Source: Spirochaetales bacterium (GTDB lineage Bacteria; Spirochaetota; Spirochaetia; SZUA-6; JAFGRV01). From it: 50,544 nt of DNA. Below, one piece after another: positions 2,109 to 26,743 of this stretch. How positions within the stretch are numbered: position 1 is the stretch's first letter; every line of letters begins with the position of its first letter. The position numbers and the translations under genes are program-made. The stretch spans positions 1-50,544 of the forward strand of contig JAFGRV010000019.1 in the NCBI GenBank assembly GCA_016934975.1, written 5' to 3'. The notes under the pieces are model-generated. The model did no database searches. It worked only from the letters and a program-made list of their open reading frames with translations, and was not told the origin of the DNA.

Positions 2109-4790
2109 ATGGCCCTTTCATATCCCATCGAAATTACCGATGCATCACTTATTTTTGAAAATAACGAGACTCAAAAAGGCGGATTTTATCCCCTCGGTGC
2201 GAATAATTTATGGCACAGCGGTATTCATCTCCACGGTTACACGGCACGGGCAATCTATGACGGTGAGATTTTAGCCTGCCGTTTGGATGAGGAGTATTGC
2301 ACCGATGATCTGGGTGAAGGGGATTCCATTACTTATTCAAGGAATTTTGTATTAGTAAAACATCATTTAATAATTGATGAAAAGGGCGTGAAAAATGCGC
2401 CGGCATTTATAAGCTCGATGTATGATGTGGATCCTTATCTTGATGGATTAAAAGGAGAAGTATATTTTTATACTTTATATATGCACCTTGCGCCAACGAA
2501 TATATATGACATTACTATCCCGGCGCCTGAGTTCATGAATACAAAGATTTGTGAATTTATTTGTAATACCGAAGAAGATACCCTGGGGGGAGAATCGGGA
2601 TTAAATGTACGAAGTAGTCCTAATGGCTCAAAAATCGGTTTATTAAAATATGGAGAAACAGTTCACTTTGAAAATCCCCTGGATTTTATTAATAATCCCG
2701 GGGGATGGAAAAAAATCAATCCCACTCCCTATGGGGCCGGTTCAGCATATATTTTCTGCTCACCAAAGAGCGGAGGGGGAGAACGGATAAAAAAGGGTGA
2801 TGAAAAAGACATACCGAAGAATGAGATCGTTGTCTTTGATAATCCGGTAAAAGTTACTGCCGGAGAGTATTTGGGGTACTGCGGCAAATACGGACCCCAG
2901 GAGAATATGTTTCATGTCGAGATTTTCCTGGATAATGTCATGTTTATGGATATGGATCCGGAATCAGTTGACCTGGGAAAAATCTATTTTTTTGAGAAAG
3001 ATTTTAATGAATTTAAAAAGGGTGCCGATTTTGAGAAAATTCATACGGACTTTTATGAGGGATCACAATTTTACAGTTTAGATAATGCTGACGGCGCGTA
3101 TAAAGTCAAAGTAAAAAAAGCCAATTTATGGATAGAAAAAAGTAAACTACATTGGATCGATTCAATAAGTCGTTATAAATGGAAAGACACTGTCAGCGAG
3201 GCTGTAGGTTATATGACAGACATCGGAAACGCCTCGGACGCGATGGAAGTAAGTGTCAGCAGCAGCGATGAATTTAAATTTCCCGGCTGGGATCTCGCTA
3301 AAACTGTGGGCGGTATAGAATACAGGAAAATTCAAGTCTCTGTAAAATACGATGGTGCTGTCACCGGATGGCTGAGCAAGAAGCAAATGGAGAGTAAAGT
3401 AAACTGGGAGTACAGTGCAGGAACCTTATTCTTAAAAGTAAAAACCGGAGCTCAAATCGCCCATTTATATAAAACGAATCCGGAAGAAATAAATTTTACC
3501 AGTGCATTAGGAGAGAGTTTAACCAAGCCCCTGGAAGTCGGTATCATTAATGGGGGGATAAAAGAGGTTAAGGATAATGATAATGTAGAATGGCTGGGGT
3601 TTACGATAAAAAAGGAGTTTCTCGGGAGTGGAAGCGAAGATGTCACTGGTTGGATAAAAAAAACAGATGCCGAAACAAAAATAATCAATTATTTCGATTG
3701 GAAAAAATTTTTTGATAAGCTGGAACCTGAATCCGACGGAGATAGTTTATGTGACAATAGCGAATTGGTAAATAAAATTGAAAATGCCGCCCAATATACA
3801 GGATCTCCATATGATCCGGACGTCTCTATCGATAATTCATTAACCAGCGAGGAGCTTTTATTAGCGTTGCAGGATGAAAGCATTGCAGCGGAATTAAGAA
3901 GAATGGTGGTCTGCCATCCTACGGAATGGAGTAATGCGGTTAATTATGATAAATTTAAAGATAATCTTAAAGATCTTTATCTCTTTAATGATAACCAGGT
4001 AAATAAACTCATGACCCATATTGAAAATATGCAATGGTGGGAAGAGGTGCAAACGAAAAGCGGTAATCAATTACCTTCCGATTCAAAAAAGATATGGTAT
4101 TTCCATCCAATTGCATTGATTGAGCATTTAAAGAAATTAAAGATAGGTATCCCGAAAGTAGAAATGTTGATCGACCACGAAGCAATGGACTATTGGTTTG
4201 ACAAAACCTATGAATCCTCAAAAAATGCAAATGGTAATTTTGCCCGAAGTCTCGATGATATTATCGAAGTCACGATTCATCATACAGAGGGAAATAGTAA
4301 TTGGTTGGATTCAAAAGGTATGATTTATGACGGCTGGCCTCTTTACGGGGGCGGCGATAATAAAGAAAATTATAAAAATGGTATAAGTTTATATAATTAT
4401 TTTTTACAAAAAGACGGCACATTAGTCGAGTGCGCCCCCTTAACAAGATGGTATAAACATTCTCATGCTAATATTCAGGATAAATATCATGTCGGTATTG
4501 AAATAAGTCATTCGACCGGTCCTTTTACCGATGAGCAGTATAACATGTTATTTGCTTTTATTTTCGATCATATTGCATCTCTCTGTATGAACTTCAAACG
4601 CATTTCCTGTCATGCATTTAATAAATGGCATTTTACAAGCGGGGGAACAAAGGAGTGTCCGTCAAAGGATTTTCTTTTCTCAAAGCTTGTAGCGGAAATG
4701 ACAAACAGGGGAATGAGTTTTACCACGGAAGATACGGAAGGTGCATACGGGGATCATGAATATTACCGATACACTATCACCTCATTTTAA
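2109..4790 (+). CDS. Multidomain peptidoglycan hydrolase: N-terminal M23/LytM-like domain split by an SH3b insert, further SH3b-like modules, a helical linker, and a C-terminal N-acetylmuramoyl-L-alanine amidase (Amidase_2/PGRP fold)
   Basis: M23-like elements: NNLWHSGIHLHG (aa 32-43), FYTLYMHL (aa 120-127), VTAGEYLGYCGKYGPQENMFHVEIF (aa 249-273). SH3b-like: GLNVRSSPNGSKIGLLKYGETV...GGWKKI (aa 164-203). Later modules end in TGWL (aa 419-422) and TGWI (aa 512-515). Amidase_2-like: IEVTIHHTEG (aa 719-728), HVGIEISH (aa 794-801), SCHAF (aa 833-837), KECPSKDF (aa 848-855). No N-terminal signal peptide or TM segment (MALSYPIEITDASLIFENNETQKGG). Confidence 0.75.
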   Translation: MALSYPIEITDASLIFENNETQKGGFYPLGANNLWHSGIHLHGYTARAIYDGEILACRLDEEYCTDDLGEGDSITYSRNFVLVKHHLIIDEKGVKNAPAFISSMYDVDPYLDGLKGEVYFYTLYMHLAPTNIYDITIPAPEFMNTKICEFICNTEEDTLGGESGLNVRSSPNGSKIGLLKYGETVHFENPLDFINNPGGWKKINPTPYGAGSAYIFCSPKSGGGERIKKGDEKDIPKNEIVVFDNPVKVTAGEYLGYCGKYGPQENMFHVEIFLDNVMFMDMDPESVDLGKIYFFEKDFNEFKKGADFEKIHTDFYEGSQFYSLDNADGAYKVKVKKANLWIEKSKLHWIDSISRYKWKDTVSEAVGYMTDIGNASDAMEVSVSSSDEFKFPGWDLAKTVGGIEYRKIQVSVKYDGAVTGWLSKKQMESKVNWEYSAGTLFLKVKTGAQIAHLYKTNPEEINFTSALGESLTKPLEVGIINGGIKEVKDNDNVEWLGFTIKKEFLGSGSEDVTGWIKKTDAETKIINYFDWKKFFDKLEPESDGDSLCDNSELVNKIENAAQYTGSPYDPDVSIDNSLTSEELLLALQDESIAAELRRMVVCHPTEWSNAVNYDKFKDNLKDLYLFNDNQVNKLMTHIENMQWWEEVQTKSGNQLPSDSKKIWYFHPIALIEHLKKLKIGIPKVEMLIDHEAMDYWFDKTYESSKNANGNFARSLDDIIEVTIHHTEGNSNWLDSKGMIYDGWPLYGGGDNKENYKNGISLYNYFLQKDGTLVECAPLTRWYKHSHANIQDKYHVGIEISHSTGPFTDEQYNMLFAFIFDHIASLCMNFKRISCHAFNKWHFTSGGTKECPSKDFLFSKLVAEMTNRGMSFTTEDTEGAYGDHEYYRYTITSF

Positions 4791-8537: not shown

Positions 8538-9287
8538 TTATCCTTCCTTATCTCTTTCAATCCATGTATGAATCGCTTTAGCTGTTTTTTCAGGATCTTC
8601 CACAAAACCACTCACATCCAGATTTGTCTTTGGTTTGGAATGCATAGTATTTGAATGAATCGTTTCATTTTCCCCATCCTGAGTACCACCGCCATAGGGC
8701 GTAAAGGACGATGCAAATGAATCGATTTCCGGGAGTGCATCAAGATTGTCGATATTTTCATCCGTGGGTTGTTCTTCATCCGAAAGCTCATCGATATAAG
8801 GGACATTATCCATCTTGTTGCTCATTTCATCCGGTTGAAAATCAGAAGTATCCTCGGAAATATCGTAAGAACTATCCGTGGAGATATCATTGGAGATATT
8901 TTCATTATTATTTTCAGCAGATCCTAATTCCTCTAAATCCGAAGATTCATCCTGAATATCCAAATCAAGTTTGGAATCTCCTCTCATATCAGCGAACATA
9001 CTATCCTGATGTAATGAATCATGAGGATTCTCTTCTGGTATTATCGCCTCGAATTCACCCTGATAATTTTTTTCTTCATCAGTTTCATTATTTATTAACC
9101 GGCCTAATTCAGGCAAAAATTTATTAATAATAACACTCACTCCCACTCCGATACCTGCGAAGATTGCTCCCCAAATGACAGCTCTAAGGAGAATTTGCAA
9201 AATAGGGACACCCCGAATTCCACCTCCCATTAAAGAAACGAGTACGGCAAATCCTGCTAAAACAGCGATTATTTTCGTGTTCATCAT
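8538..9287 (-). CDS. Membrane protein with an extremely acidic, low-complexity C-terminal region (hypothetical)
   Basis: Two N-terminal hydrophobic segments ([18 protein letters not shown]; [18 protein letters not shown]), then a D/E/S/N-rich tail. Located between flhG and fliA, where I recall Treponema also carrying hypothetical genes. Confidence 0.6.
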
Positions 9288-20655: not shown

Positions 20656-21387
20656 TTATAAATGCCCTTCGGTAAGAATCACAATATCGACTCTTCTATT
20701 TGCAGCTCTTCCTTCGGGTGTGCTGTTTTCAAATAAAGGGACTGTATCGGCGAATCCTGCAACCTGAAATTGATTTTCATTCACACCGAACTCAACAAGA
20801 TAATGAAGCACATTTGTCGAGCGGGCCGCCGAAAGTTCCCAGTTTGTGGCATATTCCCCCAGGGGATCCGTCGGCCAGGAATCGGTATGCCCCTCTATTC
20901 TAAATTTCGAGTTCTTTAATTCCGGTGCTTTAAGAAGTTTCGCCACATTCTTTAAGACTTCACGGGTCTCTTCGATATCAACATCCGCGCTTCCTTCCCT
21001 GAAATATGCGTCCGAGGCCAGGGAGATAATGAGTCCCCGCTCATCTTCCTTGACCCGTATTTTGTTTGTTTTTGCTTCAAGCTGAAAAAGAGATTTTGCA
21101 CGTTTAAGGGCCTTGTCCAGGGCCCTGCCCTTTTCCATCGAGGGAAGGGATTCAATGGTATTTCCCAGTTCCGCAAGTTTTCCTTCCGAGAGGGTGTTGC
21201 CACCCCGAAGAACCCCGAGACCCTGGAAAGCGGCCAGGATCATCCGCATCTCGGATCCATCGATGGTCGCCATGGTAAACATGAAAATAAAAAACGTAAG
21301 AAGAAGGGTTGTCATATCTCCATAGGTTAAAAGCCAATCCGGAGATCCTTCTTCTACTTTTTTCTTTCTGCGTTTTACAGCCGGCAT
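20656..21387 (-). CDS. motB: Flagellar stator protein MotB
   Basis: N-terminal plug/TM region with a conserved Asp (WLLTYGDMTTLLLTFF). OmpA-like C-domain (IEGHTDSWP...NWELSAARSTNV...NRRVDIVI). Confidence 0.95.
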   Translation of the reverse strand: MPAVKRRKKKVEEGSPDWLLTYGDMTTLLLTFFIFMFTMATIDGSEMRMILAAFQGLGVLRGGNTLSEGKLAELGNTIESLPSMEKGRALDKALKRAKSLFQLEAKTNKIRVKEDERGLIISLASDAYFREGSADVDIEETREVLKNVAKLLKAPELKNSKFRIEGHTDSWPTDPLGEYATNWELSAARSTNVLHYLVEFGVNENQFQVAGFADTVPLFENSTPEGRAANRRVDIVILTEGHL

Positions 21388-21405
21388 ACTATTTCTATTC
21401 CTTTC

Positions 21406-22194
21406 CTATTCCCTCATGGATTCCTGCTGGATCGCCTCTCTCTTATCCGTGGGAAGATATGAAAGGAGTTTTTCCTCCAGGATTCGCGGATTATCACCTG
21501 ATTGTATTGATAAAATACCCTCTATCATAATTTCCTTAATAAGTGATTCTTCTTTATCTTTATCTTCCAGCTTATTTTTAATCGGTATAAAGAGAATATT
21601 TGCTAAAAATGCACCATATAATGTGGTAACTAAAGCGATGGACATACCGCTCCCGATGGCCGACCTGTCTTCGATTTTCGTAAGCATGGCGATAAGCCCG
21701 ATAAGGGTTCCGATCATTCCGAAAGCCGGGGCAAGCTTTCCCCAGGTATCAAAAAGCTTAATTCCATCGTCGTGTCTGTCCCGAATTTTATTAAGCTCGG
21801 TATTTAACACATTCTTGATAATGTCCGGGTCTGTCCCATCAACAACGAGCTGAATACCTTTCCGGAGAAAATCATCATCCACACTCTCAAGATCATCTTC
21901 AAGGGCAAGAATCCCGTCCCGGCGTGCTTTTTCCGAAAAGGAGACAAGGTTCTGAATGAGTTTTAGCTCCCCGTGTTCCTGCTTACGGAAAATAATAGCG
22001 AAAAACTTAAGCATATCCAGAACACGGGACATGGGATTCGCGATCATTATTGCACCAAAGGAACCGCCGACGGTAATAAGGAAGGAAGATAAACTCACAT
22101 AGATGATAGGAGATGTTCCGCCCCCTGCCATACCGATAATAACAGCAATAACACCTAATATTAAACCAATAATTGTTGCCAGATCAATTCCCAT
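21406..22194 (-). CDS. motA: Flagellar stator protein MotA
   Basis: 262 aa, four-TM MotA/TolQ/ExbB family (APAFGMIGTLIGLI, LVTTLYGAFLANILFIP). Confidence 0.95.
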   Translation of the reverse strand: MGIDLATIIGLILGVIAVIIGMAGGGTSPIIYVSLSSFLITVGGSFGAIMIANPMSRVLDMLKFFAIIFRKQEHGELKLIQNLVSFSEKARRDGILALEDDLESVDDDFLRKGIQLVVDGTDPDIIKNVLNTELNKIRDRHDDGIKLFDTWGKLAPAFGMIGTLIGLIAMLTKIEDRSAIGSGMSIALVTTLYGAFLANILFIPIKNKLEDKDKEESLIKEIMIEGILSIQSGDNPRILEEKLLSYLPTDKREAIQQESMRE

Positions 22195-22305: not shown

Positions 22306-22503
22306 TCATGTTTCATTCTTGAAGGCACCTATCAATTTTCTGTACTGTACGATTCTTTTAAATATGGTGGGATAATCTTCACGGATAACGAGGCGTTTCC
22401 CGGACAACATAATGAGTGTGGTATCCGGATTATTCTCTATGTATTCAATTTGATGAGGATTTACATAAAATGTTGTTTTATCTAATTTTGTCACTTCTAT
22501 CAT
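22306..22503 (-). CDS. flbD: FlbD (small flagellar protein, SwrD family)
   Basis: MIEVTKLDKTTFYVNPHQIEYIENNPDTTLIMLSGKRLVIRE is the typical FlbD sequence. Position immediately upstream of motA. Confidence 0.9.
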   Translation of the reverse strand: MIEVTKLDKTTFYVNPHQIEYIENNPDTTLIMLSGKRLVIREDYPTIFKRIVQYRKLIGAFKNET

Positions 22504-22552
22504 AAAATCAATTTACCACTCTTATTTGCAAGAACCTGTCTTCACATATGAA

Positions 22553-22621
22553 GCGTACTCTCGCCAAGCGAGTACTTTCGCCAAGCGAGTACCCTCGCCA
22601 AGGCGAGTACTCTCGCCAACC
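22553..22621. repeat. Tandem repeat, 4 units of 17-18 nt (consensus GAGTACTYTCGCCAAGC)
   Basis: Units at 22553-22569, 22570-22586, 22587-22604 and 22605-22621. On the transcribed (minus) strand, adjacent units form GC-rich tetraloop hairpins, e.g. GGCGAG-AGUA-CUCGCC, separated by UU. Confidence 0.85.
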
Positions 22622-22693
22622 GACTGCAAAAAGTCTACAATTATTATAGGATTTTTGCAATTGGCACATGAAGGCTGATATGAACATAAATGA

Positions 22694-22737
22694 GTTTTCC
22701 ACCTCCCTGCATTTTGCTCTACATTGAGGTGGAAAAC
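22694..22737. other. 12-bp perfect inverted repeat (stem-loop) in the flgE-flbD spacer
   Basis: GTTTTCCACCTC (22694-22705) pairs with GAGGTGGAAAAC (22726-22737); 20-nt loop. Confidence 0.7.
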
Positions 22738-22831
22738 ATTAAACCTTCATTATAATAAAAGTGCACACCTTAGTACTTACCGAAGCAGACGCTAAGGTGC
22801 ACACACCATTGTCTTATACTCCTCCTGTTTA

Positions 22832-22893
22832 GAGTTTGTCATTTCCTTTTTTTAATTAAGTACTCTTAATTAAAAAAAGGAAATGACAAACTC
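22832..22893. other. Perfect 29-bp stem, 4-nt loop hairpin starting 45 nt downstream of the flgE stop
   Basis: GAGTTTGTCATTTCCTTTTTTTAATTAAG (22832-22860), loop TACT, then the exact reverse complement (22865-22893). No flanking U-tract on either strand. Confidence 0.85.
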
Positions 22894-22938
22894 ACTATTA
22901 CTGGAAATACAGACAATTTATAAAATAGTCTGTATATA

Positions 22939-24333
22939 CTATCGCTTGAGTGTTAACAACTCCTGGAGCATTTGATCGGATGTTGTTATTGTACGGGAGT
23001 TTGCCTGGAATCCACGTTGGGTGACAATCATATCGGTAAATTGTTCTGCCAGATCAACATTACTCATTTCCAAAGCCCCGGCGATTATCCGTCCTCTTCC
23101 TTCCACCCCGGATGTGCCTGTCCGCGCTTCACCGGAATTATTCGAGACAACATAGTCATTCTCACCCGCTTTCTCGAGTCCACCGGGATTAGTAAAATGA
23201 GCAAGAGCTATCTGCCCGAGGGTTCTGTTGGTACCATTTGAATACACCCCGGTAATGACACCCTGCTGATCTATTTTAAATGTCTCCAGATATCCCATGG
23301 AATGGCCATTCTGCTCAATTATCTTTGTGGAAAATAAATCCCCGAATTGAGTGACCGCATTTCTGTACGACCCTATTTCGCCAAGATTCAGATTAAAGGT
23401 CTGTCTGTATACCCCGCCTTCTGCTGTCTGGTCTGCTTCCGATACATCAAATGCAACTGTAGCGATGGCGGGAATGTTATCACCGATAACCTCGCCTCCC
23501 GCGGCATCTAAAATTGACTGCAAAGCCCCTTCATTATCAAAATCAAGAAAAAATATGTTGGAAGCATTCCCTGATCCGGGGATTTCAGCGATTGTATTTG
23601 TCGGGGGGTCTGCTCCCGGATCCACCTCAACAACAACCTGCCATCTGTTTGCTATATCCTCTACCCGGGAAAAGGTAACCTGAAGCATGTGGGGGCGTCC
23701 GAAGGAATCATAGATATCAAAACTTGTTACCCAGGTCCGTTGATTTAATTCAGCTTCCGTCGGGTTTGCCCCTAAGGGCTCCACCCGCTTATCAAGGTTA
23801 CTGGCGAATTTAACTTCCGTTGTTGCAAATGCCGGGTCTTTACTCCCTACGGGAATAACCATATCTTCCAGGGCAGCTGATGTGTTAAGAACCGTCTCTC
23901 CCCCGACTGTCCTGGCATTCCATCCCTGTACTTTCTGTCCATTTGCGGGATTTACTAAGAAGCCTTGCTGATCCAGGGTAAAAGCCCCGTTTCTTGTGTA
24001 AAAACTCTTATCCCCATCTTTCAAAATAAAAAATCCATTCCCCTGAAGCGCCAGGTCTGTCATGACCCCGGTGGTCTGTAGAGACCCCTGGGTATGAATC
24101 GTATCAATTGATGCGATCACCATGCCGAGGCCGACTTGTTTCGGATTCACACCCCCGATTTCATTCGTCGGCTGTGCCGCCCCCGACATCGTCTGGGAAA
24201 GCATATCCTGAAAATTAACACGGCCTTTTTTAAATCCTGTCGTGTTTACATTGGAAATATTATTACCAAGGACATCCATTCTTACCTGGTGATTTTGAAG
24301 TCCTGAAACTCCTGCATACAGTGATCTCAACAT
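22939..24333 (-). CDS. flgE: Flagellar hook protein FlgE
   Basis: N-terminal MLRSLYAGVSGLQNHQVRMDVLGNNISNVNTTGFK and C-terminal VDLAEQFTDMIVTQRGFQANSR rod/hook motifs. 464 aa. GGGAG SD. Confidence 0.96.
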   Translation of the reverse strand: MLRSLYAGVSGLQNHQVRMDVLGNNISNVNTTGFKKGRVNFQDMLSQTMSGAAQPTNEIGGVNPKQVGLGMVIASIDTIHTQGSLQTTGVMTDLALQGNGFFILKDGDKSFYTRNGAFTLDQQGFLVNPANGQKVQGWNARTVGGETVLNTSAALEDMVIPVGSKDPAFATTEVKFASNLDKRVEPLGANPTEAELNQRTWVTSFDIYDSFGRPHMLQVTFSRVEDIANRWQVVVEVDPGADPPTNTIAEIPGSGNASNIFFLDFDNEGALQSILDAAGGEVIGDNIPAIATVAFDVSEADQTAEGGVYRQTFNLNLGEIGSYRNAVTQFGDLFSTKIIEQNGHSMGYLETFKIDQQGVITGVYSNGTNRTLGQIALAHFTNPGGLEKAGENDYVVSNNSGEARTGTSGVEGRGRIIAGALEMSNVDLAEQFTDMIVTQRGFQANSRTITTSDQMLQELLTLKR

Positions 24334-24335
24334 AA

Positions 24336-24812
24336 TTACGCTCCCTCTGAACTGATACTTACTACTGCCTGATAGTCAAAATACTGACCATTTACAAATA
24401 TCTGTTGAGTATCCCCTCCCGAAACTTTCTCAACTTTTCCTTTAATAATGTCACCGCCGGACACAATTTCCACCACCTTCCCAAGCAAGGAAATCGCGTT
24501 ATTACCCTCGATAAGATGTGATAAATTTTCAAGTCCGGTTCCCAGCTTTCCAAACCCTTCGCTCATATTATTAATCTGTTCCAGTGTGGAAAACTGGGCC
24601 ATCTGGGAAATGAACTCTTTATCTTCCATCGGCTTCATGGGATCCTGATTCGCAAGCTGTGTAATAAGAAGTTTTAGAAAGGCATCCTTATCCATCTCAT
24701 TTTTATTCACTTTGCCCTGTGAAATCTGCTTATTTACTGCATCTGTGAGGATTTGAGTCTTGTGCATGTCTTCTTTTGACATTATCATATTCGGAATCCC
24801 AATCCCATCCAT
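24336..24812 (-). CDS. flgD: Hook capping/assembly protein FlgD
   Basis: MDKDAFLKLLITQLANQDPMKPM motif. GGAGG SD. Position upstream of flgE. Confidence 0.93.
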   Translation of the reverse strand: MDGIGIPNMIMSKEDMHKTQILTDAVNKQISQGKVNKNEMDKDAFLKLLITQLANQDPMKPMEDKEFISQMAQFSTLEQINNMSEGFGKLGTGLENLSHLIEGNNAISLLGKVVEIVSGGDIIKGKVEKVSGGDTQQIFVNGQYFDYQAVVSISSEGA

Positions 24813-24891
24813 CTACGGCCTCCTTCTTATTCTATCACCTGTTCCGTGCTTCATCCGAAGCAGCGGACTTATTCACCAATTTTCAATTGGG

Positions 24892-26106
24892 TCAGACAAC
24901 AAGATTAACCCTGGCAAACTGAATTCCAGGATCAAACAATACATCAACATTCTTATCAAACTCTTCTACTGCTTCCGCATACGGAATATAATCATCCGGT
25001 TTTCCTTGTTGGTTTTGCGGATTGCCGTCTCCAACGGAAACATGCAGGGAAACCGAATCATACCCCTCCTGCTTCAAAGCAGTATTCAAATTCTGCAGGG
25101 ATGTTTCAACGATCCCTTTTATACTATTATTTTCGACAAATATTTTACCATCTATATGATTATTCTGTAAAAGTACACGCATTCTTATGCGCCCGAGAGA
25201 TTCCGGCTTCAAATCGATCCTTATTTCACCTGCGCCGCCTTGTTTTATAATTATTTTCGTGTGTTTTACCATCTCGGACTCAAGAGAGGCTTTTAATTTT
25301 TGTACCATTTCCTGATCAAGTCCGGCAGGTGCCTTGTTTATTACTCCCGGAGTTGTTTCCTGCTGCCGGATAGTACCATCTCCCTGAGAAGATACATAGA
25401 ATACGTGCTGGGAAGACTGCTGGGAAGACCCCTCCGATTTTTGCAGCATAGCTTTACTTGCCTGATCACTGTTTCCCGTGGCCTTTGATTGATCTGTGAC
25501 CTTTGATTCTTTCTGAGTATTTTTAATATCTTTTCTTAAATCGATGACCACAAGCTTCGGCAAAGAATCCGGCTTCTGTAAGTCCGGCAGCTTTACATTC
25601 TTTTCATTTATCAACCCAAGAACTGCTTTAAATGGAGGATCCTGATTCTTCGTATCAGCTTTATTCTTATCCGGTGAAGCGATAAGAGCTTGTAAGGCAT
25701 TAATAAGGCCCTCATCAATCTCGTTTTTTTTCTCAAGTTTCTTTAATAATGCGGAAAGAAGATCTCCTTTTTCTTTGTCTGAAAATTGAGTGTGTTCAAG
25801 GAGATTTTTTACAAAAGCAAATAATTTTTTCTTTACGGGTCCCTTAACTTTACCTGCAATTTTTTTTACAACATCGGATATAAAACGAAGAAGCTTATGT
25901 TCACTTATTTTTTCTTGTGATGTTTGCTTTATGTCACTCTCCGACTCCCTGGCTTTCTCAACTTCCCGGGCAAAAGAGTCCTTTTTATTTTTGTCTTCTA
26001 TGTCTTCTTTCCGGAATTCTGTTTTCTTTTCAGATTTTACTTCTTTTGATGTTGTCTGTGCTCCGGGGTTCTGTATAGCTGTAAAAACCGGTATGGCTTG
26101 GGCCAC
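24892..26106 (-). CDS. fliK: Hook-length control protein FliK (Treponema Tap1 / Borrelia FlbC position)
   Basis: Low-complexity K/E/Q-rich N-region. C-terminal Flg_hook-like domain (GEIRIDLKPESLGRIRMRVLLQNNHIDGKIFVENNSIKGIVE). GTG start with GGAG. Confidence 0.85.
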   Translation of the reverse strand: MAQAIPVFTAIQNPGAQTTSKEVKSEKKTEFRKEDIEDKNKKDSFAREVEKARESESDIKQTSQEKISEHKLLRFISDVVKKIAGKVKGPVKKKLFAFVKNLLEHTQFSDKEKGDLLSALLKKLEKKNEIDEGLINALQALIASPDKNKADTKNQDPPFKAVLGLINEKNVKLPDLQKPDSLPKLVVIDLRKDIKNTQKESKVTDQSKATGNSDQASKAMLQKSEGSSQQSSQHVFYVSSQGDGTIRQQETTPGVINKAPAGLDQEMVQKLKASLESEMVKHTKIIIKQGGAGEIRIDLKPESLGRIRMRVLLQNNHIDGKIFVENNSIKGIVETSLQNLNTALKQEGYDSVSLHVSVGDGNPQNQQGKPDDYIPYAEAVEEFDKNVDVLFDPGIQFARVNLVV

Positions 26107-26119
26107 TTATATTTCTCCA

Positions 26120-26743
26120 TTAACTGCTTGTTTTCCGGGCCATCTTTCTGTTTATTTCTGCCGCCCGTTCCTTTGGCATTTCCGAGAGCCAGTATGCAAC
26201 CAGGGACATTTCCCCTTGTTCCCGGGCGTTTTCTTCCGTAATCCGGAAGATATCGATAATATCCACATCTTCCATTTCCAGAAGTATCGCCACTGCTTTT
26301 TTCGGTTCCATATTGACCAGATACTCGGAACTCTGTTCAAGGTTCCTTCTTCTCTTATCGTACGCTTCGACCCGTTCATTAAATGAATTTTCTCGTTCGG
26401 ACATAGCTTTTTCCTGTTCTTCCAGATCCATGATCATCTGGGCGATCTCTTTTTCTTTATCCGCGATGGCTTTTTCCCTCGTATCGAGTTCTTCCGCCCG
26501 TAGTTGTAATGCCTCATCCTGCATAACAAATTGTTCCCGCTCCCTTAAAAGGGGATCTTCGATATCCTCGACAACCGTACGTTCATTAAACCCGAGGATA
26601 CGGAAGAGTGGGGCCAGAACATCCTTGCCGTCATAAAGACCGAGCAAATCAAACCAGGCAAATCCCGCGACAACTAAGGTTATGAGGATAAGAAGAAGAA
26701 ATATTATTTTTGTGCCGCCTCCTATGTATGAATACCGTGCCAT
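26120..26743 (-). CDS. flbB: FlbB (spirochete collar-associated flagellar protein, MgtE-N-like)
   Basis: Single N-terminal TM segment (IIFLLLILITLVVAGFAWF), coiled coil, MgtE-N-like segment (MEPKKAVAILLEMEDVDIIDIF). Sits between fliJ and fliK, as in Borrelia. GGGAGGGGG SD. Confidence 0.8.
   Translation of the reverse strand: MARYSYIGGGTKIIFLLLILITLVVAGFAWFDLLGLYDGKDVLAPLFRILGFNERTVVEDIEDPLLREREQFVMQDEALQLRAEELDTREKAIADKEKEIAQMIMDLEEQEKAMSERENSFNERVEAYDKRRRNLEQSSEYLVNMEPKKAVAILLEMEDVDIIDIFRITEENAREQGEMSLVAYWLSEMPKERAAEINRKMARKTSS

Follow-up and report, generated by a model that had tools for sequence, protein, structure and literature searches.

The hook protein FlgE encoded in the analysed window, a stretch of 50,544 nucleotides of a Spirochaetales bacterium (contig JAFGRV010000019.1), carries Ser in place of Cys at position 178 and otherwise retains the published signature of lysinoalanine (Lal) cross-linking, namely K165 in the D1-D2 linker, N179, L180, a hydroxyl residue (S335) where T. 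denticola has the catalytic Thr, and K337. By analogy with Ser-type hook proteins that have been studied biochemically, it is probably an SNL-type, lysinoalanine-competent hook protein that would act via a dehydroalanine derived from Ser178. At the site where spirochete hooks are cross-linked, Ser178 is an ordinary variant that has been described before.

The flgE gene (22939..24333, minus strand), recognised as an open reading frame and by Pfam and PDB matches, codes for a protein of 464 residues with D0-D1-D2 organisation, in which the Pfam domains Flg_bb_rod, LlgE_F_G_D1, FlgE_D2 and Flg_bbr_C are found. On the same strand, Lys165, the predicted nucleophile of the cross-link as judged from the alignments below, is encoded by AAA (23839..23841), Ser178 by AGT (23800..23802), and Asn179 by AAC (23799-23797). 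The Asn179-Leu180 codons (23794..23799) complete the SNL motif, and the Ser335-Thr336-Lys337 segment lies at 23323..23331. The local motif around K165 and S178 is IPVGSKDPAFATTEVKFASNLDKR, and the stretch from residue 135 to residue 164 is free of Lys. An earlier note on this DNA had given the positions of K165, S178 and N179, the coordinates of the AGT codon and this local motif exactly, and had correctly described the 464-residue translation as containing no Cys. The absence of Cys from the whole protein is true but is not a separate signal: each of the 56 Cys-type species representatives surveyed below has exactly one Cys, at column 178, and only a few metagenomic Cys-type relatives have a second. 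The query is therefore free of Cys because the single Cys of most Cys-type relatives is the very residue that has been switched.

Ser178 falls exactly on the residue of Treponema denticola FlgE that undergoes the cross-link chemistry. In a phmmer search against the PDB the query matched T. denticola FlgE (6ndx_B) with E = 2.4e-100; residues 92-193 align without a gap, with numbering shared up to residue 193, and the identity over residues 92-424 is 51%. In MAFFT alignments, K165/S178/N179/L180 of the query correspond to residues 165/178/179/180 of T. denticola, and S335/T336/K337 to T334/T335/K336. The same method places K165/S178/N179 on K166/S179/N180 of Turneriella parva (Leptospirales) FlgE and S335/T336/K337 on T335/T336/K337 of the Leptospirales protein, the sequence aligned (P0124) representing a cluster to which Turneriella parva WP_014802556 belongs. 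The equivalence of S178 and T. denticola C178, which the earlier note had put forward, is thus upheld by both phmmer and MAFFT, and MAFFT extends it to Turneriella S179. Among the deposited T. denticola D2 chains, 6NDW (wild type) and 6NDV (K336A) read NYACNLDKR at the site, i.e. Cys178, whereas 6NDT has the letter S in this column and 6NDX the letter A. Because the entry titles describe 6NDT as the dehydroalanine intermediate and 6NDX as the lysinoalanine-linked dimer, these letters are parent-residue codes of the modified residue, which is dehydroalanine in 6NDT and the alanyl half of the lysinoalanine in 6NDX. An AlphaFold2 model of the query has pLDDT values of 85-93 over D1-D2 and low values in the D0 helices. 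Its D2 domain matches the T. denticola D2 crystal structures in Foldseek with target-normalised TM scores of 0.89-0.93 and an rmsd of 1.7-2.6 Å, and the structures matched by the predicted fold include the Lal-dimer and dehydroalanine-intermediate entries.

As TGT is only one transversion away from AGT, the codon might in principle represent a sequencing or assembly error at position 23802, and this was one of the readings that the earlier note had entertained. An exact-protein look-up retrieved a Logan contig (SRR13394437_2139412), from a separate assembly of run SRR13394437, that encodes an identical 464-residue FlgE. It matches the window over positions 22760-26333 with two mismatches, at 22901 (C/T) and 23677 (A/G), neither of them at the Ser178 site. 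A further contig co-occurring in the same run, 87% identical, keeps the AGT codon. Five near relatives with identities of 91, 88, 84, 79 and 77% all possess Ser178, one at 85% has Cys, and Ser is present at this position in 30-48% of relatives. The identical protein on an independent contig and the Ser in the nearest relatives exclude an assembly error for practical purposes and leave it a negligible probability, the support for the base at 23802 coming from assembled Logan contigs and relatives. Ser178 is genuine and inherited.

Dehydroalanine can arise by β-elimination from two residues, Cys and Ser, of which Ser is a far worse leaving-group precursor. A natural precedent for the use of Ser comes from Leptospira interrogans FlgE, in which a Ser (S179) replaces the Lal-forming Cys and lysinoalanine is still formed; Lynch et al. 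2023 (PMC10691653) detected it in the recombinant protein as well as in the native periplasmic flagella. The recombinant protein forms Lal without any other factor, with a requirement for pH 10-11 in vitro, and it has been suggested that cellular factors may compensate for the poor reactivity of Ser (PMC10691653). The same report describes the T. denticola C178S variant as forming Lal-linked complexes in lower yield and more slowly than the Cys form; the FlgE of Brevinema andersonii is listed there as K165/S178/T328, being mentioned and not assayed (PMC10691653). A candidate signature (Lynch, Charon and Crane), proposed in a 2026 preprint by the same group, combines CNL or SNL with a catalytic Lys and a catalytic Thr, and explicitly accepts SNL proteins (10.64898/2026.05.22.727228). 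The catalytic Thr is T334 in T. denticola, where its hydroxyl bonds the N179 amide (PMC10691653; 10.64898/2026.05.22.727228); in Thermanaerovibrio FlgE it is required only in part (preprint 10.64898/2026.05.22.727228). The earlier note started from the premise that spirochetes in general conserve the Cys. This is out of date: Ser occurs in Leptospira and Brevinema (PMC10691653) as well as in many of the relatives that we surveyed. With Ser being common in characterised clades and in our survey alike, Ser178 also cannot be counted as unusual, and its frequency in characterised clades is a result that the note itself had named as a refutation. Generation of dehydroalanine from Ser is the best supported of the three readings that the note had offered, but the chemistry itself has already been published (PMC10691653).

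The survey showed Ser to be common among close relatives at every level of sampling. The 193 non-redundant relatives have Cys in 112 cases, Ser in 80 and a gap in one, and when the query is included (194 sequences; Cys 112, Ser 81) no other residue is encountered in column 178. The best 120 proteins, which are 66-91% identical to the query and derive mostly from metagenome-assembled genomes annotated as Spirochaetales or Spirochaetaceae, include 61 with Cys and 58 with Ser. Among the best 80 GTDB species representatives, 56 have Cys (TGT 35, TGC 21) and 24 have Ser. The Ser codons in these 24 are evenly divided between AGY (12; AGC 11, AGT 1) and TCN (12), and as these are two one-step routes from TGY, Ser must have arisen repeatedly. 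In agreement with this, Fitch parsimony on a neighbour-joining tree of the 194 non-redundant sequences puts Cys at the root and requires a minimum of 13 switches between Cys and Ser, and shuffled column-178 states on the same tree require at least 52. Some clades consist of Ser-type sequences only (39, 12, 9 and 4 members, with the query in the clade of 4), and protein divergence within them reaches up to 21-25%. At the other extreme, 12 phylogenetically independent Cys/Ser pairs were recovered, the closest of which are 98% and 95% identical. In the first (P0020 and P0025) the two FlgE proteins differ as Cys versus Ser at column 178, and the second comprises two Sediminispirochaeta sp. metagenome-assembled genomes, L072 (Cys) and L076 (Ser). 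Such pairs show that the switch can occur in very close relatives, possibly inside a single genus.

The residues surrounding this column are far less labile. K165 and N179 are found in all 80 species representatives, K165 is invariant in all 194 sequences of the clade, as are N179 and L180, and K165, D166, N179, L180 and K337 are retained in every one of the 81 Ser-type sequences. Column 335, equivalent to T334 of T. denticola, holds Ser in 185 of the 194 sequences and Thr in the other 9, in Cys-type and Ser-type proteins alike. Ser335 of the query thus keeps a hydroxyl at the position where T. denticola and Turneriella have Thr, and a strict Thr-based motif screen would overlook the whole clade. 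Together these patterns show purifying selection on the whole cross-link signature in Ser-type lineages; as an argument for cross-linking such conservation is correlative, and it draws on sequences that are not fully phylogenetically independent. Substitutions that might compensate for the switch were also considered. Columns 332, 176, 327 and 40 showed a raw association with the Ser state that vanished in the 12 independent pairs and so appears to be a phylogenetic artefact; no column changes consistently with the Cys/Ser switch in these pairs.

A comparison with more distant FlgE proteins helps in separating the features that are specific to cross-linking from those that belong to the fold. 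The xNL motif is near-universal in a set of 150 FlgE proteins that represent clusters at 50% identity. Its first residue is Gly in 82 of them, Cys in 18, Ser in 15, Asn in 15 and Lys in 11. All 18 proteins with Cys also have Lys at column 165, as do 13 of the 15 with Ser, only 10 of the 82 with Gly, and none of the 33 with Asn, Lys, Gln or His (Fisher's test for Lys165 with Ser versus with residues other than Cys or Ser, p = 3.9e-10). In FlgE proteins that do not cross-link, column 165 is Thr, Ser, Gln or Leu and column 178 is mostly Gly, Asn or Lys. The prevalence of the latter three residues outside the cross-linking lineages implies that the fold does not demand Cys or Ser at this position. 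What marks the cross-linking lineages is Lys165 combined with a column 178 that is limited to Cys or Ser.

Taking as models the FlgE of L. interrogans and the C178S variant of T. denticola, we propose that after hook assembly Ser178 would lose water by β-elimination to yield dehydroalanine, and that the ε-amine of K165 from an adjacent subunit would then undergo aza-Michael addition to it, generating an inter-subunit Lal bond. The reaction started from Ser is probably slower than that started from Cys. Given that there is no Lys in residues 135-164, no link besides the canonical K165-178 one would be expected. We infer that this cross-link forms in the source organism, in a protein whose residues, alignment columns, fold and inherited Ser are matters of observation, as is the purifying selection on its signature in Ser-type lineages. 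A contrary reading is that the Ser-type hooks of this lineage are un-cross-linked or only marginally cross-linked in vivo, the change from Cys to Ser being a tolerated loss and the neighbouring residues being kept for structural reasons. The much lower reactivity of Ser would fit this, as would the reduced yield of C178S and the high pH needed by the Leptospira protein in vitro (PMC10691653). The switches between proteins that are 95-98% identical, with no accompanying compensation, also have a near-neutral look, and N179 and L180 are conserved in nearly all FlgE proteins, whether cross-linking or not. Yet with the loss of the cross-link both K165 and residue 178 would be expected to drift, whereas K165 is never lost among the Ser-type sequences and column 178 never leaves the Cys/Ser pair, even in clades with 21-25% divergence. 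Moreover, the Ser-type hooks of Leptospira bear Lal in vivo (PMC10691653). We consequently regard loss of the cross-link as somewhat unlikely. The limitation of the column to Cys and Ser and the unfailing retention of K165 instead support Ser as a working dehydroalanine precursor.

A close counterpart is the L. interrogans protein (K166/S179/T335), which likewise has the Ser in an SNL motif, preceded by a Lys at a distance of 13 residues, and a (T/S)TK segment containing a hydroxyl residue and a Lys. The related FlgE of Turneriella parva (Leptospirales) aligns column for column with the query and is 53% identical to it. The query lineage is nevertheless Spirochaetales-like and not Leptospirales, and the position of the catalytic Thr is occupied by Ser. 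L. interrogans further possesses the lysines K145 and K148, which give rise to alternative Lal isoforms, and the equivalent positions in Turneriella (ATK and EGK) are lysines too; these are absent from the query, in which only K165 is available. T. denticola FlgE (K165/C178/N179/T334/K336) shares K165, N179 and L180 with the query, and its K336 corresponds to K337. It differs in having C178 and T334 where the query has S178 and S335, and dehydroalanine formation in the query would release water rather than the H2S released in T. denticola. From the published residue listing, Brevinema andersonii FlgE agrees with the query in its K165/S178 numbering and Ser state, but it belongs to a different order and has Thr (T328) where the third motif of the query has Ser. 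The FlgE of the synergistote Thermanaerovibrio and the SNL hits of the preprint follow the same three-motif logic (CNL/SNL, Lys, Thr). They differ in possessing additional D3/D4 domains and external flagella, whereas the query is a compact D0-D1-D2 protein encoded in a spirochete-type operon.

This operon is a flagellar superoperon of spirochete style on the minus strand, with the order flgB-side genes, fliI, fliJ, an ORF lacking Pfam matches, fliK, flgD, flgE, flbD, motA, motB, fliL and fliM, followed by flhA, flhF, flhG and a sigma factor. The genes hslVU, an xerC-like gene, topA, dprA and ftsQAZ lie upstream of it. Directly upstream of flgE is the hook-cap gene flgD (24336..24812, minus strand; Pfam FlgD, 9.7e-24), preceded by the hook-length control gene fliK (24892..26106, minus strand; Pfam Flg_hook, 1.1e-14). 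On the other side, an ORF of 65 residues (22306..22503, minus strand) separates flgE from the stator genes motA and motB (20656..22194, minus strand; Pfam MotA_ExbB, MotB_plug and OmpA). In keeping with spirochete flgB operons we take this ORF to be flbD-like, and in each of the 80 related loci tblastn detects it on the downstream side of flgE. Two ORFs of the superoperon lack any Pfam match, one of 207 residues between fliJ and fliK (26120-26743, minus strand) and one of 249 residues flanked by the genes for the flhG-like ATPase and a sigma factor (8538-9287, minus strand); these are probably lineage-specific flagellar genes. Elsewhere in the window, a protein of 893 residues (2109-4790, plus strand) combines a C-terminal Amidase_2 (N-acetylmuramoyl-L-alanine amidase) domain with about 700 N-terminal residues lacking a Pfam match.

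The gene neighborhoods bear on a further alternative, in which Ser178 is handled by other chemistry with the aid of an accessory factor, for instance phosphorylation or esterification followed by elimination, in the manner of the lanthipeptide dehydratases, or is joined to a different partner. This draws on the suggestion of the Leptospira study that cellular factors might offset the low reactivity of Ser (PMC10691653). We consider it quite improbable: Ser-type loci show no extra gene beside flgE as compared to Cys-type loci, no accessory gene adjoins a Ser-type flgE among the 80 related loci, in which the gap between flgE and flbD is short in both types, and recombinant Leptospira FlgE forms Lal unaided (PMC10691653). 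A different partner is likewise disfavored, as the Leptospira lysines K145 and K148 have no counterpart in the query.

The spacer between the stop codon of flgE and the start of flbD in the window (22504-22938) is unusually long at 435 nt; the corresponding gap in the 80 related loci is 7-281 nt, and mostly about 22 nt. No homologue of the spacer was found in these loci. It contains a perfect inverted repeat of 29 bp (22832-22860/22865-22893) with a 4-nt loop, several further hairpins, and four tandem units of approximately 17 nt, GCGAGTACTYTCGCCAA, at 22551-22623. Folded as RNA, it reaches -169 kcal/mol (z = -12.3 relative to shuffled sequences), and an Rfam scan of the window returned no match. 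The spacer could be an inserted REP-like or otherwise structured element, a small RNA, or a structure that stabilises or attenuates the mRNA after flgE. The independent Logan contig described above (L081) ends at 22760, inside this structured region and downstream of the 29-bp hairpin, which would fit with repeats breaking the assembly graph.

A more far-reaching interpretation concerns the free-living Spirochaetales as a whole, in which Cys and Ser would have been switched repeatedly and reversibly (at least 12 events). If cross-linking of their Ser-type hooks goes to completion in vivo at physiological pH, then either the active site activates Ser much better than the in vitro work suggests, or a cellular factor or condition drives the reaction, and the choice between the two residues might be adaptive. 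We put this forward as a speculation that is rather unlikely to hold; if true, the choice might set, for example, the rate of cross-linking or the sensitivity to periplasmic oxidants or sulfide. In the literature the Cys is treated as conserved outside Leptospira, with Ser noted for Brevinema, whereas in our survey about a third to half of the uncultured and free-living Spirochaetales have Ser. What is added here to the published picture is small, namely the frequent toggling between Cys and Ser in free-living Spirochaetales other than Leptospira, with the Lys partner held constant under continued selection. The frequency of the Ser type also bears on proposals for thiol-directed inhibitors of the Cys-dependent cross-link.
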